A stretch of 39,456 nucleotides of DNA from IMG/VR virus record IMGVR_UViG_3300020045_004814, positions 1 through 39,456 of that record. One strand, given 5' to 3'. This stretch comes from a virus (Duplodnaviria; Caudoviricetes). Numbering within the stretch: the stretch's first letter is position 1; each line of letters starts with the position of its first letter. A program made the position numbers and the translations under genes. The notes under the pieces were generated by a model, which was not told where the DNA came from, made no database searches, and saw only the letters and a list, made by a program, of their open reading frames with translations. Below, piece after piece: positions 4,237-38,886 of the stretch.

Positions 4237-4285
4237 AGTTTTTAGTTTTTAGTTTTTAGTTTTTAGTTTTTAGTTTTTAGTTTTT
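4237..4285. repeat. Perfect tandem repeat (AGTTTTT)x7
   Basis: Seven exact heptamer copies between a promoter box and an ATG. Confidence 0.95.
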
Positions 4286-16621: not shown

Positions 16622-16634
16622 GTTTGTATAAATT

Positions 16635-16708
16635 AAAAAAAATGCAACCAAATTACTGATTGCATTTTCATTCCTATTAACCTTAAAACCATTACCGAAA
16701 CAAATATA
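16635..16708 (-). ncRNA. Candidate ~60 nt small RNA (promoter box, short unstructured segment, terminator)
   Basis: TATATTTG at 16701-16708; hairpin 16639-16668 with an 8-T tail; no ORF in between. Confidence 0.4.
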
Positions 16709-31765: not shown

Positions 31766-31915
31766 TTAATATCTATTTCCGTTAGTAATTTGTTGTAATA
31801 ATTCGAGGAATATGTACACAAAAAGAAGTGCAATAGTTCCGATAAAAAAATGCGTGTTGTAAAATATACCTAGTAGTATTGATACTGCGCATAGGGATAG
31901 GATGGTTAGTTTCAT
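31766..31915 (-). CDS. Small 2-TM membrane protein (49 aa)
   Basis: Hand-translated MKLTILSLCAVSILLGIFY...; ATGA overlap. Confidence 0.5.
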   Translation of the reverse strand: MKLTILSLCAVSILLGIFYNTHFFIGTIALLFVYIFLELLQQITNGNRY

Positions 31916-32533: not shown

Positions 32534-34714
32534 TTAGAATAGAGTTAAAGTGCTATTTTTCTCTTGAACAAAGTCTTTATGATTTTTTGCGTTCAAAGCG
32601 AAATAACTTTCTTTAAGTTCAATCGATATGCTTTTACGATTCATTTTAATTGCAGTGCAACCCTCAGATCCAATGCCACCGAAAGGGCTTAAAACCGTGT
32701 CACCCTCATTGGAATATAAATGCAATATCCTTTCAATAGTATCTAATTGTAAAGGGCAAATATGTTTTTCATCATTTCCATCACGTCCAGAACGATATTG
32801 TAAGGTTCTCGAATAATCAATATCATACCAAACTGGCGATGCATATTTTTGCCATAAGTCAACTGGCAAATAATCTAATTTTGAACTATCAGTATCTTGG
32901 TGCGTAATTGGGTTTTGATTTTCGCCCTCGTTTCTAAAAAATAAAACATAATCTGGGATGCCAACTCTAGACATTATACTGTCTTTTTTTATGGTTTTAT
33001 GTAACAATCCTAATGCTTTTGTGCGTTGCATTTCTGTAACTGGATTTTTCCACAATGTAACTTTTGAATGATAAATAAATCCCTCTTTTTGAAACCAATC
33101 AATTAACATTCCGCTAAAGTCACGCAATCCGATATAGCCCTCTTTACCCTTTTGTATTGGTAAATCCATACAATGAATAGCACACATACGACCGCTTTTT
33201 AATGTTCGTTTTAACTCAGGTATAAGATATTTAAAATGAGTTTCAAATTGTTTATAATCGCTAACATTTCCCATATCCTCTTCTTTATCGCTGTAAACAT
33301 ATAACTCAGCAAATGGTGGGCTAAATACAATTACATCAACGCAATTATCCGGTAGCTTTGCAGTTTCTTGAACGCAATCGCCATTTATTAAATGATACTC
33401 ATCTGTTTTTATTTCTTTATTCATAACTTTTACTTTTGATTTTGCTTTTTTATAATTAGTTTCTGCAGAATATCTAGACATTTCTTTTATACGTTCAAAG
33501 TGTTGTTTTTCTTTCTCTAAAATAGTATTTCTTACATTTACTTGACTTTCAGGAATAAGAATGTGAACGGTTACTTTATTCTTTTGCCCGAACCTATAAC
33601 AACGTCTAACCGCTTGGTAAAATGCTTCAAATTTAAAATCATAAGACATAAATATCATTTGATTACATTGTTGGTAATTCATACCAAACGAAGCAATAGA
33701 AGTCTTTGTAATAAGTGTTTTAAATTCATTATTAGCAAATCCATTTAAATATTTGGCTTTGTATTCAGGTTTGTCCGAACCTTGCACATTAATTGAATTT
33801 GGAAGTAATTTTGATAATGTATCAGTTTCTTGGTTTTTTAATCCCCAAACAATCCATTGGTTATCATTTGAATTAACAAGTTCTAATGTTTTTTCAATTC
33901 TTGCATCAAATGACCTATTCAAATCTTTGTGTAACTCCGTAGCTGAAACTGCAACATCACCAAATAAATTTTCGCTAAGATTATCTACTTTTATAATGTG
34001 CTCAATATATTCTATTTCTGGCAAATTATACCCTTCTGAATTAAAACCTAAACTACTAGGATTGTCAATTGCCATACTCCATCCTGATACATATTTCCAG
34101 AAGTTGTCGGCAGCGTGTTTTCTTAATCTCCATTTTGAAGTTTCGCCTCCGTCGTGAACAAAATACATAGCTAACATTTCTAAATAACTCATACCTCCTA
34201 AAAACTCAGAATGCTGTCCTAATTCCATATGGTCATTTGGACTTGGTGTAGCGGTACAGCAAAGTTTATAAGGTGTAGTTTTAAAGGTTTCAATTATCAA
34301 ACTAGACAATTTACCGTCACGTCCTTTTAATATTGAACTCTCATCTAAAACCACTCCTGAATAAATAGATACATCGGTATTTTTTAACTGATCATAATTT
34401 GTAATATCAAATACATCAATATCGATTCCGAACTTTACAGCTTCATTTTTTGTCTGTTCAACAATTGCTAAAGGTGCAAGTATTAAAACTTTCTTTTTAG
34501 TCTTTTTTGATACTTGTTTTGACCATTCTAATTGACAAAAAGTTTTGCCTAAACCGCAATCAAAGAAAAAAGCAAATTTACCTTTAAACAATGCCGTTTT
34601 AACTCCAAACTTTTGAAAGTCTTTTAACATTGGATTCAAATTTGACTCTTTAAGTTCAAAACCACTTTCGATAAAAGTTTTACGTTTTGTTTCTAAAAAC
34701 TTGTCATATTCCAT
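32534..34714 (-). CDS. SNF2-like helicase fused to an N4-C/N6-A DNA methyltransferase
   Basis: DCGLGKT, LDESS, TATPSPND, GMNYQ, QAVRRCYRFGQ; then GDC, FSPPF (motif IV), HICPLQ, SPFGGIGS (motif I) in beta-class order. Confidence 0.9.
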   Translation of the reverse strand: MEYDKFLETKRKTFIESGFELKESNLNPMLKDFQKFGVKTALFKGKFAFFFDCGLGKTFCQLEWSKQVSKKTKKKVLILAPLAIVEQTKNEAVKFGIDIDVFDITNYDQLKNTDVSIYSGVVLDESSILKGRDGKLSSLIIETFKTTPYKLCCTATPSPNDHMELGQHSEFLGGMSYLEMLAMYFVHDGGETSKWRLRKHAADNFWKYVSGWSMAIDNPSSLGFNSEGYNLPEIEYIEHIIKVDNLSENLFGDVAVSATELHKDLNRSFDARIEKTLELVNSNDNQWIVWGLKNQETDTLSKLLPNSINVQGSDKPEYKAKYLNGFANNEFKTLITKTSIASFGMNYQQCNQMIFMSYDFKFEAFYQAVRRCYRFGQKNKVTVHILIPESQVNVRNTILEKEKQHFERIKEMSRYSAETNYKKAKSKVKVMNKEIKTDEYHLINGDCVQETAKLPDNCVDVIVFSPPFAELYVYSDKEEDMGNVSDYKQFETHFKYLIPELKRTLKSGRMCAIHCMDLPIQKGKEGYIGLRDFSGMLIDWFQKEGFIYHSKVTLWKNPVTEMQRTKALGLLHKTIKKDSIMSRVGIPDYVLFFRNEGENQNPITHQDTDSSKLDYLPVDLWQKYASPVWYDIDYSRTLQYRSGRDGNDEKHICPLQLDTIERILHLYSNEGDTVLSPFGGIGSEGCTAIKMNRKSISIELKESYFALNAKNHKDFVQEKNSTLTLF

Positions 34715-36301: not shown

Positions 36302-36478
36302 TTATAATGTTTCATGGTTAATAACTTCGATTTGTGAGGCATCGTCTACTATTCCGTTTAATAGTTCTCTAGCCTCTTTTAGTTTGTCCTCAAGGTAAGC
36401 GTTTCTTTTCTGTAACGCTTCTATTTGAAGTGCCTGGAACTGTTCTAAGTCCGTTTTAGGTGTTGTTGTAGTATTCAT
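36302..36478 (-). CDS. Small coiled-coil protein (58 aa, ...DLEQFQALQIEALQKRN...)
   Basis: Hand-translated; A-rich leader. Confidence 0.65.
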   Translation of the reverse strand: MNTTTTPKTDLEQFQALQIEALQKRNAYLEDKLKEARELLNGIVDDASQIEVINHETL

Positions 36479-36536
36479 AATGTTTTCTTTGTTTTAGTGT
36501 GTATTTTATGATTCAATCGACGAGTTATGCCTCATT

Positions 36537-37418
36537 TTAAAGACCACAGTACCCTGAATCACATTCGTTAAAATCAGAGGAGACTAAATGATGTGTTAAG
36601 TTCATATTTTTTATTCTTTCGTATGTTATATTGTCATCCATTTTGAAAGTATCGTTTTTGTATTTTCTATCTTTCTCAAAATCACTAAATATTTGCATTT
36701 TTTCATTTTCATTTTCCCACATATATTTTAAAAGTAATGGTTCCCGATGAAAGCAACCTACACAATTATTAAATTCAGCAAATCGAACAGGTTTATCTTT
36801 CCAATATTTTTGAATATCATCTTTCCAAGTTGGTTTATTTTCAATAAAAGGGAATACAGGTTTTGAAAATTTAGTTGTGTCCCAAATTTGTTGAGTACCT
36901 TTTTTAGTTTCCTTAAATCCTATAACGTGCTTAAAAGATTCGATTCTATTTTCATCGCAAGTTTTCAATTTTTTTGCCATTCTACTCATTTCGTTTGCAC
37001 GATAACCAATTCTCGTCTCAACAATTTCCTTTATATTTTCTTGCCACCATTCAAAAGCAACTTTCATTTTTAATTCTTCTGTGCAATATCTTCTTAATGG
37101 AGATGGTAAACATCTTGTTCCGTGTTCGGCAATCATTTCATCAAATGAAATTTTACTTGTATTTATTTTAATTGATTGCCCTGTAAATTGTTCTAAATCT
37201 AAAATGGTATAAATACAAGTATCTTGTTCAAGTGTTCCGATAAATTCAAAACCTATTCTATCTGAAATTAATTGACGTGTTTTTTCGTCTTTGCCTTTCA
37301 TAAATAATGCTTTAGGATTATTTGTCCGTACCAATTGAAATATATTGTAGTCAGCAGGAAAATCAACCATTAATTTAGCAGAAGTTTGTCCTCCAGAAAC
37401 ACTATTAACTTTTATCAT
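36537..37418 (-). CDS. PP-loop (PAPS reductase-like, adenine nucleotide alpha-hydrolase) protein with Cys clusters
   Basis: VNSVSGGQTSA, RYCTEELK, IGYRANE..R, NNCVGCF, terminal ECDSGYCGL. Confidence 0.78.
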   Translation of the reverse strand: MIKVNSVSGGQTSAKLMVDFPADYNIFQLVRTNNPKALFMKGKDEKTRQLISDRIGFEFIGTLEQDTCIYTILDLEQFTGQSIKINTSKISFDEMIAEHGTRCLPSPLRRYCTEELKMKVAFEWWQENIKEIVETRIGYRANEMSRMAKKLKTCDENRIESFKHVIGFKETKKGTQQIWDTTKFSKPVFPFIENKPTWKDDIQKYWKDKPVRFAEFNNCVGCFHREPLLLKYMWENENEKMQIFSDFEKDRKYKNDTFKMDDNITYERIKNMNLTHHLVSSDFNECDSGYCGL

Positions 37419-37683
37419 TTAGCAAGTCGTTTAGTTCGTTAATACATCTATCTAAAATTCTTAATTCAACTGATTTGTTAATGTTTAAAAAATTAGATTT
37501 TTCTACTAATTCTTTTTTCTCGTTTAATTCTTTCAAACGAGATTCGATTTTTTCTATAATACTTTTCATTTTTATATTTTTTAATTGTTTTTTAAATTTT
37601 AATTCTTCATCACATTCTACTCCAAAATTCTCATAACTACAACCTATGTGTGTATTACATATTTTGCAAAAAAAACGAGGCAT
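37405..37683 (-). CDS. Small hypothetical cassette protein (start at 37683 MPRFF or 37569 MKSII)
   Basis: The ORF-track start at 37788 lies outside the cassette boundary and overlaps another gene. Confidence 0.5.
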   Translation of the reverse strand: MPRFFCKICNTHIGCSYENFGVECDEELKFKKQLKNIKMKSIIEKIESRLKELNEKKELVEKSNFLNINKSVELRILDRCINELNDLLNDKS

Positions 37684-37927
37684 AACAATCGCCACTATCT
37701 TGATAATTTTTACTATATAAATGACCGCTTCCTTCATCACTATGCTGATTGCAACAAGCAACTTCGCAATAATCTGAATCATTAGCACAATTATCTATTG
37801 CCTGTTGAGTTGCGTATAACAAATCGCAATCCATACCAGCTAAAAAAATATTATGTTTATGTGCGTTTTTTAGTGCTGAGTTTAATCGCCTGATTGCTTT
37901 TTCTTGTTCTTTTGTTATTGCTTCCAT
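37655..37927 (-). CDS. Hypothetical cassette protein, probably with a chimeric C-terminus
   Basis: ATG 5 nt from the cassette end motif; the frame reads through the next cassette boundary at 37686. Confidence 0.6.
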   Translation of the reverse strand: MEAITKEQEKAIRRLNSALKNAHKHNIFLAGMDCDLLYATQQAIDNCANDSDYCEVACCNQHSDEGSGHLYSKNYQDSGDCYASFFLQNM

Positions 37928-37941
37928 AATTTAACTACTGC

Positions 37942-38069
37942 TAACAGCAATTACACGCTATTGCTACATTGTGATTAATTTATTTTTGGTTTTGTACCTT
38001 TCAATTCCGTGTTAAACTGAAAGGTATTTTTATGTTTTTACGTAACAGACGTGTAGTTGCAAAACGTTA
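37942..38069 (+). repeat. attC-like site B (128 bp imperfect palindrome)
   Basis: TAAC-A-GCAATTACACG-CTATTGC ... GTAACAG-A-CGTGTAGTTGC-AAAAC-GTTA; inner TACCTTTCA/TGAAAGGTA stem. Confidence 0.8.
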
Positions 38070-38426
38070 TCACTCAGCTTCGTTGGAGTACATATCAAAA
38101 AGTACTTCCGAAGAAATAACTTCTGAATTTTTGTTTATCCATTTATTTTTATCTAACAATCCCCATCCGTTCAATTGTGTCCATTCCGCAAATGCTATTG
38201 GAGTTGTTTTATCTTTTTTTGCAAAACTTTCAGCATATTCCATTAAATTTAAAAGCAATTGATTATCTACTATTTGATAATTAGCAAATACTTTCAAATC
38301 TTGAATATACATTTCGCCACCAATACATAGATTTTCCTCAATAAGTCTTTTATGTATTTCAAATTTCTTTTTATTTTCCATCGCTTTTGCGATAAATTGC
38401 TCTTTTTTCAATTCTTTTTCGTCCAT
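38070..38426 (-). CDS. Hypothetical cassette protein (probable start MDEKEL)
   Basis: Exactly fills the space between the two attC-like sites; TGA stop is part of the TGATAAC end motif. Confidence 0.7.
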   Translation of the reverse strand: MDEKELKKEQFIAKAMENKKKFEIHKRLIEENLCIGGEMYIQDLKVFANYQIVDNQLLLNLMEYAESFAKKDKTTPIAFAEWTQLNGWGLLDKNKWINKNSEVISSEVLFDMYSNEAE

Positions 38427-38453
38427 ATCGTTGTGAATAAAAAGCCGAAGTGA

Positions 38454-38580
38454 TAACATACGCTAACCGCTATTCAGGCTTTAGGTTAAATTTAATTACT
38501 GTTTTGTGTCTGTAAGATTTGTAATAATCCGAAAGTTCAGTCCTTACTTTTCCTGAACATCGGTTAGCGTCCGTCCGTTA
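38454..38580 (+). repeat. attC-like site A (127 bp imperfect palindrome)
   Basis: TAAC-AT-ACGCTAACCG-CTA-TTCAGG ... CCTGAA-CAT-CGGTTAGCGT-CCGTCC-GTTA. Confidence 0.8.
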
Positions 38581-38886
38581 ATAAAAATCACTTCTTTTAA
38601 CTCCGTTGTAATCGTATAAATCTGAAATAGTTTCTGAAAACGTTTCTACTTCTCTGTAAGGCGTTTCGTTTAATATAGTCCACATTCTTTTTGATTGCTC
38701 GTCTGTAGGTTTGATCGAAACCCAAATCCCATTATGAAAGTAAACAAATTCCTCAACATGGTTTTTACCGTTTCCATCTTTGTAAAAATCAACAGATACT
38801 TTTTTATTGCTAAATCTGTAGTTCCATTCTATATCTGACTGGTATTCCAATACAGCGTTTTCTATTGCTTCGGATAGTAGTTTCAT
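38578..38886 (-). CDS. Early hypothetical protein
   Basis: Ends DLYDYNGVKRSDFY; its TAA stop is the GTTA core of site A. Confidence 0.75.
   Translation of the reverse strand: MKLLSEAIENAVLEYQSDIEWNYRFSNKKVSVDFYKDGNGKNHVEEFVYFHNGIWVSIKPTDEQSKRMWTILNETPYREVETFSETISDLYDYNGVKRSDFY

Follow-up and report, generated by a model that had tools for sequence, protein, structure and literature searches.

What is the row of small genes and long imperfect palindromes at positions 36524–38580 of the viral record IMGVR_UViG_3300020045_004814 (Duplodnaviria, Caudoviricetes), and how could a phage that encodes no site-specific recombinase have come by it? The whole stretch of DNA analysed here, the window of 39,456 nt, is a complete phage genome (rated 100% complete, with a 122-bp terminal repeat). 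An earlier note, made from the sequence alone, had read the locus as an integron-like array of gene cassettes. We find a partly broken array in which palindromes delimit the gene units, and it belongs to a family of arrays that rearrange at GTT cores. The cassette logic of the earlier reading is therefore kept, and its composition is amended: the array would originally have had three sites, of which one appears to have been deleted, leaving the first two units fused.

Two intact sites of a common register

The two sites and the units with recognisable ends are as follows.

37942–38069, + strand: site A, an attC-like palindrome of 128 nt, with the crossover predicted in the GTT at 38066–38068
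38454–38580, + strand: site B, an attC-like palindrome of 127 nt, with the crossover predicted in the GTT at 38577–38579
36524–37686, + strand: unit 1, with complementary ends at 36524–36538 and 37672–37686; its hairpin site is apparently lost
38066–38577, + strand: unit 3, consisting of a gene and site B, the sole intact single-gene unit

The two palindromes bounded by TAAC and GTTA that the earlier note described are thus present. They share a register, TAAC followed by 1 nt and an 11-bp arm on the left and the returning arm followed by 5 nt and GTTA on the right, in which 10 of the 11 pairs are formed, and they are the sole sites of that register in the genome (mean of 0.03 in 60 dinucleotide shuffles). 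Their sequences are identical at 73 of 127 positions. Neither fits the cores RYYYAAC and GTTRRRY, as had been expected for the latter. Both are intact, with copies elsewhere that are 85–96% identical. The homologs of site A in cultured phages (89–91% identical) have sharp edges, and its left arm recurs exactly in 70 viral loci in which the flanking genes differ on both sides, so that similar palindromes do lie beside unrelated genes. Of 201 Flavobacterium genomes, 3 also contain site A. For site B, the left arm recurs exactly in 9 viral loci, and the homologous alignments mostly end at 38579–38580. Site B folds better than its shuffles (z = −2.9 for the top strand and −3.6 for the bottom strand).

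The units were said to have matching ends of their own, and both matches exist: outside the core, the sequence starting at 38066 is complementary to that ending at 38457 at 6 of 8 positions, and that starting at 36524 to that ending at 37686 at 7 of 8. The second match differs from the description in that 37672–37686 does not border site A. Stop codons were found in or near the unit ends, as claimed, at 38070–38072 (adjoining the core), 38578–38580 (within the core) and 36537–36539 (9 nt from the core). When the junction of a circle of unit 3 is modelled on the bottom strand, its folding energy is −28.1 kcal/mol, against −21.4 kcal/mol for linear site B.

Movement of units in related phages

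Cultured phages of the Lillamyvirus and Muminvirus groups that share site A have arrays that begin at a fixed core without a hairpin and stop at a right end that is likewise fixed. Taking lillamy9-1 as the reference, a 439-bp unit, made up of a gene and a homolog of site A, is internal, and the same unit is the first of the array in lillamy9-7. The three junctions of this move share only the core of 5–7 nt, GTTAT or GTTATAA. A 476-bp unit is also absent from lillamy9-7, missing exactly at a core. The 439-bp unit has moved in the same way in lillamy9-3, and both phages probably inherited it from a single event. Among 113 distinct block ends in 16 cultured Flavobacterium phages, 81 fall at cores, where ~3.6% would be expected; the ends were taken from pairwise comparisons and so do not represent independent events. 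The same phages show 11 first-unit labels and 2 last-unit labels, with some units merged by the detector. When metagenomic and cultured loci are taken together, 28 of 38 block ends coincide with GTT cores, where random placement gives a mean of 2.9 and a maximum of 9; near TAAC there is none.

From the unit moves and the GTT block ends it follows that a unit is a gene together with its right-hand site, read on the + strand. This bears out the + strand reading with a cut in the right-hand GTT, and the breakpoints of insertions and deletions in related phages, proposed earlier as a check, lie mostly where that reading places them. The more exact claim of a crossover between G and TT holds as far as the triplet; the junctions do not single out a base within it. 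That a hairpin-less left end is a likely insertion point is supported by the 439-bp lillamy unit, which entered such a core. None of three whole lillamy genomes has a match to the profile of the recombinase described below, and the enzyme must therefore have acted in trans or in an ancestor.

The same breakpoints could be explained otherwise, if the sites were connectors of transcription or translation (terminators, processing stems or leaders to start codons) and the units between them were swapped by homologous recombination or by microhomology recombination of a phage recombinase. The phage does encode a YqaJ/RecE-like exonuclease and a protein that binds single-stranded DNA (SSB), site families are ~90% identical between phages, start codons lie ~10–35 nt after the left end of the site, the word TAnnTTTG is enriched on the top strand of the sites, and 32 of the 113 breakpoints are off-core. 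However, the homology at the junctions is just 4–7 nt and includes a hairpin-less core unrelated to the sites, and the breaks gather at GTT rather than at TAAC. On this explanation one would also not expect the unit-specific complementarity of ends, the linkage of core bases in host units or a dedicated recombinase adjoining the first core, all of which are described below. We regard the connector explanation as quite improbable.

A site family common to phages and Flavobacterium chromosomes

All 15 of the DNA matches between the array region and deposited phages are to Flavobacterium phages, from which a Flavobacterium-like host is probable. With a detector based on the register, 87 sequences (0.72 Mb, with some redundancy) gave 264 sites that share the majority orientation and a single site in the opposite one, and 0.50 Mb of shuffled sequence gave none; since the detector selects for arm pairing and the main strand was set for each locus, the pairing and orientation counts arise partly by construction. 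The consensus reads YAAC-A on the left and C-GTTR on the right, with T.G fixed at the fifth arm position, an A located 15 nt beyond TAAC and the arm unbroken for 11 bp. The arms lie 50–190 nt apart and pair by all four base-pair types. Over the 8 nt beyond the core, the ends of a unit are complementary at an average of 5.27 positions, against 2.68 for the own site and 2.69 (maximum 3.10) for permuted units (n = 134), and position 7 of this outer stem is a C.A mismatch in 108 of the 134. The longest open reading frame (ORF) is antisense to the sites in 130 of 135 phage units, so that the antisense cargo remarked on at the present locus is usual in phages.

Two features distinguish the strands. 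When scored without bias, tolerated mismatches would be G.T pairs on the bottom strand, by 79 against 5 in phage sites and 116 against 2 in host sites. Of 150 phage sites, 111 have their better fold on the bottom strand. The same bottom-strand G.T bias appears for attC in the accessible text of Nivina 2016 (PMC5027507). Fits to RYYYAAC and GTTRRRY are few, 8 and 6 of 205 phage sites and 16 and 21 of 198 host sites, respectively.

Scanning bacterial genomes with the site motif gave at least 143 stretches, mostly in Flavobacterium. Among the matches listed there are 183 sites in the majority orientation and 1 in the opposite orientation, and the cargo is sense in 66 of 74 units and antisense in 8. 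Given whether Y in YAAC is T or C, base 4 at the start of a host unit can be predicted in 67 of 67 cases, against 30 of 67 for base 4 of the own site; the cut is thereby placed inside GTT. Homologs in hosts were found for 35 of 208 phage sites, with identities of up to 91%. One host array contains an antisense unit that is 72% identical to a phage protein, and site A lies among sense units in a Flavobacterium genome. These cases point to an exchange of units between phage and host arrays, with the reservation that draft genomes may include misbinned phage contigs.

Being palindromic, numerous and widespread in Flavobacterium DNA, the sites could be taken for repeats of the MITE or REP kind or for structured RNAs such as the Flavo-1 motif (RF01705), itself a palindromic repeat of the Flavobacteriaceae whose function is not known. 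The sites are, however, co-oriented and travel with a gene, and no Rfam match above threshold was obtained in the window and four cultured-phage loci. Flavo-1 was rejected, as its covariance model does not match the sites, and its sole match among four array regions of hosts falls outside the sites, across the recombinase gene from them. A repeat or RNA family of this sort is scarcely credible as the explanation.

Two further observations were made on the sites. In loci L010–L079, to the left of site A, the genes joined to a single site family differ and number in the dozens; the joint lies close to the start codon, 10–35 nt from TAAC, which bears on how cassettes are first made. The word TAnnTTTG, the Bacteroidota promoter motif, occurs in site interiors on the top strand in 56 of 208 phage sites (21 in shuffled sequence) and 36 of 179 host sites, and on the bottom strand in 2 and 1, respectively; one such word lies at 37981–37988, inside site A. 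In phages these words would point against the cargo genes.

A candidate recombinase

Family searches with PF00589 and PF00239 and with the profile of the candidate recombinase found no tyrosine or serine recombinase in the complete phage genome, in agreement with the earlier note. A candidate host enzyme, for which Flavobacterium chromosomes had been named as the place to look, does lie beside arrays of the same sites there. At two host loci a tyrosine recombinase of 345–347 aa is encoded just left of the array. The gene is found in 93 of 151 Flavobacterium genomes, nearly always as a single copy, and the other 58 genomes of the genus have none in the match list. At 29 loci picked by protein similarity alone, a TATA-rich core ending in A-GTTR lies 89–123 nt after the stop codon in 22, of which 9 had helped to derive the motif and 13 had not. 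A hairpin site follows within 1.5 kb downstream in 12 of the 29 loci (5 of the 29 end within 300 bp), and neither an attI-like core nor a hairpin site was found upstream in any. In three genomes chosen for their sites, the recombinase is followed by 22, 17 and 10 sites. The largest arrays seen (22 and 17 sites; L259 and L260, in genomes G003 and G005) are headed by a longer recombinase of 580–603 aa.

The candidate has the domains PF13495 and PF00589. Against the integron-integrase model TIGR02249, whose cut-off is 265 bits, host copies score 205 and 201 bits, in two stretches, and phage copies 146–153 bits. In a test for the IntI insertion, residues 254–273 of the candidate align across residues 185–247 of IntI4, so that ~43 residues are absent. 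The best solved relative is the archaeal XerA (E = 9e-43), with IntI4 at E = 6e-35, and the copy of Flavobacterium seoulense (L113) scores 220.9 on NF040815, for which the cut-off is 220.

These affinities allow a second reading of the sites, in which a Xer/XerA-like enzyme would act on double-stranded DNA and the palindromes would be paired binding sites rather than hairpins. A recombinase that lacks the IntI insertion, has XerA as its best solved relative and scores at the NF040815 cut-off is what this reading would call for, and the poor folding of site A, described below, is in keeping with it. Arms lying 50–190 nt apart and paired by all four base-pair types are not, nor are a mismatch bias that favours one strand and a complementarity of unit ends that extends outside the core. 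Recombination of double-stranded sites is thus unlikely here, and we prefer the reading in which the sites would act as folded single strands.

Four phage loci encode full relatives of 266–275 aa, 33–43% identical to the host copies, which start ~45–55 nt from the first core and are oriented away from the array. With a fifth locus, which holds a fragment only, recombinase-bearing loci make up 5 of 90. The proposal that the phage borrows a host integrase is strengthened in so far as its genome encodes none and a host candidate exists, and is weakened by those other phages that encode a copy of their own. That the system is site-specific and driven by this recombinase family we consider very probable; that the enzyme comes from the host seems to us as probable as that it does not.

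Three annotated 'integrase' genes of other phages, in Ingeline_1 (L265:4968–5759), Leef_1 (L266:4995–5858) and Freya_8 (L267:3245–4060), are 32–40% identical to the cassette recombinases and have a GTTAG core ~50–60 nt before their start, in matching geometry. A site with a matched unit lies upstream of the gene in Leef_1. The strict detector found no site in Ingeline or Freya, and one in Leef only when relaxed. By similarity and position, these 'integrases' may be cassette recombinases and not lysogeny integrases.

A probably deleted site and a weakened first core

The features that bear on the state of the array are the following.

37672–37691, + strand: apparent relic of the left end of a deleted third site (site C), joined straight to a truncated gene end
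37655–37927, − strand: cargo gene of unit 2, of a conserved family of ~81 aa, with its last two codons replaced by read-through
36494–36527, + strand: hairpin-less first core, attI-like and weakened, with the insertion point predicted at the GTT at 36524–36526
975–1011, + strand: a second, better attI-like core, with its GTT at 1005, top of 700 on the phage first-core profile (26.2 bits)
787–970, − strand: broken ribbon-helix-helix (RHH)-like gene, of the kind typical after first cores, with a frameshift and an in-frame stop

The sequence at 37672–37686 sits ~255 bp left of site A and is not followed by a hairpin. Homologs of the neighbouring gene end in DSGGY or DSGGW at ~81 aa (11 of 11 viewed, out of 36), and here the sequence diverges after DSG at 37691. 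Because the hairpin is missing and the adjacent gene is broken after DSG, we infer that a deletion removed site C along with the first part of the unit after it, and so fused units 1 and 2. The match between the ends at 36524 and 37686 is by itself within chance, since a score of 9 of 11 or better is also attained by two further pairs elsewhere in the genome. It is made credible by the C.A mismatch at position 7 that is shared with the family, and by the occurrence of the same left end on an intact site in phage snusmum9-1; the same unit start is found in L064 and L231.

The core at 36524 is preceded by A, as are attI-like cores, where hairpin sites have C. Scored with a profile of first cores from phages (24 cores), it comes second among 700 GTTR words, and 14 nt of the gene start that is usual after first cores survive as a relic in its left flank. 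Core 1005 is followed by a 24-nt remnant and then by another core at 1029, with no hairpin site, and no partner site was found for either. The 23-mer of core 1005 heads a two-site array in L283, which also holds an intact homolog of the broken gene at 787–970; the matches of this gene to DUF6290, CcdA and RHH_1 are weak, all below cut-off. Both loci, the array at 36524 and core 1005, look decayed in their sequence. A match near 31781–31792 in the alignment of the flanks was dropped as protein-coding similarity.

The array could then be a fossil, built by the same system in an ancestor with its own recombinase and now immobile. The deletion of site C with truncation of a gene, the weakened first core, the nearly empty core 1005 beside its broken RHH-like gene and the recombinases carried by other phages all fit such a history. 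Against it, sites A and B are intact, and near-identical lillamy isolates, also without a recombinase, differ by a precise move and deletions. A loss of mobility at 36524–38580 is possible, though we lean against it; it concerns current activity and is compatible with the origin proposed here.

Several observations weigh against our reading of the locus as a whole. Site A folds no better than its shuffles (z = −0.7 for both strands), and on its bottom strand the full hairpin has −10.7 kcal/mol compared with −13.3 kcal/mol for the unconstrained fold. Core 36524 fits the host attI profile only weakly (rank 22 of 700). Block ends lie off the detected cores in 32 of 113 and 10 of 38 cases, some of which may be undetected sites. 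The recombinase is assigned to the sites by adjacency only. When a close relative or an empty site of this phage was sought with the flanking genes, each search led to a single locus that was weak or unrelated, the exact patterns of both array ends had no match in viral or metagenome contigs, and no excised circle of the phage was found. A degenerate pattern for the 81-aa gene end also had no match, the pattern having assumed the wrong last residues.

Cargo and genome setting

The remaining genes of the array and its flanks are listed here.

36537–37418, − strand: cargo gene for a PAPS-reductase-like protein of 293 aa (phrog_424, E = 6e-14)
37405–37683, − strand: small cargo ORF, 92 aa if started at the ATG inside the unit end
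38070–38426, − strand: cargo gene of 118 aa, with 38 homologs and no family match
38578–38886, − strand: flanking gene, transcriptionally upstream, with its stop codon within the last core
36302–36478, − strand: flanking gene downstream of the first core, with homologs in other contexts in L229, L031 and L060

The cargo thus amounts to one PAPS-reductase-like protein and three small proteins without an assigned function. The PAPS-reductase-like protein has 3370 homologs, a partial match to PADLOC SspD (E = 7e-9) and no solved relative. We infer for it a role in the modification of DNA or sulfur; since methyltransferases fill the arrays of cultured phages, the cargo may be DNA-modifying and anti-restriction. 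The gene at 37655–37927 has 36 homologs, one of which (P0004) seems to carry another type of site upstream. No site-like partner was found to the right of the 38578–38886 gene and site B. In one DNA sequencing run (0.05 share), contigs cover the PAPS-reductase-like gene and both sites in pieces, with loose ends at 38069–38070, and no contig of that run spans the array; no RNA run was listed as containing the phage.

The genome has a G+C content of ~30%, and the minus strand holds nearly all genes. It encodes a terminase, portal, capsid, helicases, a helicase-methylase, a YqaJ-like exonuclease and SSB. The gene at 32534–34714 fuses a helicase-like domain to an N6/N4 DNA methyltransferase (726 aa). 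About six tandem copies of a T-rich 7-nt unit lie at 4240–4285, near the start of a small early gene cluster, and 16633–16703 has a weak match to the Bacteroidetes FopS sRNA family (E = 2.9, below cut-off).

Relation to integrons and other known systems

In its workings the system is like integrons, and especially sedentary chromosomal integrons. Each unit is a gene plus a site, the cores are of the form YAAC...GTTR and are cut in GTT, units are received by a first site that has no hairpin and next to which the recombinase is encoded, and there are a bottom-strand G.T bias and excision between sites. The receiving core is seen to take up a unit in lillamy phages and is a fixed core in hosts; in the window it is identified by resemblance only. 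The differences are equally plain. Some 43 residues belonging to the IntI insertion are missing from the candidate recombinase, and its 205 bits fall short of the cut-off of 265; in the available part of Cury 2016 (PMC4889954) this IntI-specific insertion (intI_Cterm) serves as a marker of integron integrases. There is no integrase gene in the phage genome. Cores rarely fit RYYYAAC and GTTRRRY. The L boxes of attC have extrahelical bases and its register has 5/6-nt spacers; the present sites have the register 1/5, an unbroken arm in which T.G is fixed, and an outer stem of 8 nt in which C.A is fixed. (The extrahelical bases (EHB), UCS and VTS of attC are treated in the accessible text of PMC5027507.) The host recombinase gene is co-directional with the array, with the first core after its stop, and cargo is antisense in phages (130 of 135) and sense in hosts (66 against 8), sense being the integron arrangement, with expression from a promoter at attI. 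The system therefore works like an integron, but the absent IntI insertion, the non-canonical cores and register and the antisense cargo place it outside the integrons.

With two co-oriented sites and no integrase, the locus also resembles a CALIN, but its sites are not canonical attC. Phage CALINs, clusters of attC-like sites without an integrase in virulent phages and with DNA methyltransferase cargo, are described in the accessible part of Qi et al. 2023 (PMC9892861), which names no Flavobacterium phage in a screen of 10,705 phages, reports that attC1 of Polaribacter phage P12002L did not recombine with IntI1, and describes no reordering, attI-like site or cognate recombinase. The P12002L attC1 is like the present sites in its antisense cargo and partly matching unit start, and differs in its register, ~3/6 on our own reading, which the 1/5 detector misses. 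The published 'attC2' of this phage (L268:29237–30070) coincides with the start of a unit in reverse reading and has partial complementarity to the sequence flanking 'attC1' on the left, and such a backward unit start could explain the divergent P12002L sites of that study.

XerA and the NF040815 family ('site-specific tyrosine recombinase/integron integrase') are likewise simple tyrosine recombinases with PF13495 and PF00589, but the Flavobacterium proteins sit at cassette arrays and have N-terminal extensions (~345 or 580–600 aa in total, against 266–275 aa for phage copies). We found no description of the cassette system in the literature searched, of which the coverage was partial and most subscription papers lay outside, and the accessible text of the lillamy phage paper (PMC7077304) contains neither 'integron' nor 'cassette'. 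A cassette system common to Flavobacterium and its phages is thus apparently undescribed, and 36524–38580 is a small, decaying example of it.

Proposed mechanism and implications

Since the phage encodes no recombinase, we propose an enzyme acting in trans, supplied by the host or by a co-infecting phage. It would cut the folded bottom strand of a site. The excised unit would then be circular, its joined ends lengthening the stem, and would enter the array again at the first core, which would be double-stranded. With their antisense cargo, newly acquired units would be added to the phage operon at its promoter-distal end, where transcription of the phage would read them. More broadly, flavobacteria and their phages may share an integron-like system whose recombinase has no IntI insertion, and recombinase-less phages such as this one may use the host enzyme during infection to reorder and take up accessory genes, for example those of DNA-modifying enzymes, with a mirror-image, antisense pool of cassettes in phages and a two-way flow between the pools, a proposal for and against which we find the case evenly balanced.

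With the recombinase in ~60% of Flavobacterium genomes, mostly beside an attI-like core, a common gene-capture system would escape the standard tools; the available text of the IntegronFinder 2.0 report (PMC9024848) gives almost no complete integrons in Bacteroidetes. If an enzyme that has no IntI insertion does recombine such sites, this would bear on the evolution of integron integrases. The system would also provide a precise mechanism for the mosaicism of phage early regions and the turnover of DNA methyltransferases. Rearrangements at the level of units are already seen in cultured pairs of phage and host, Lillamyvirus and Muminvirus on Flavobacterium sp. LMO6 and LMO9, which makes the system directly testable.

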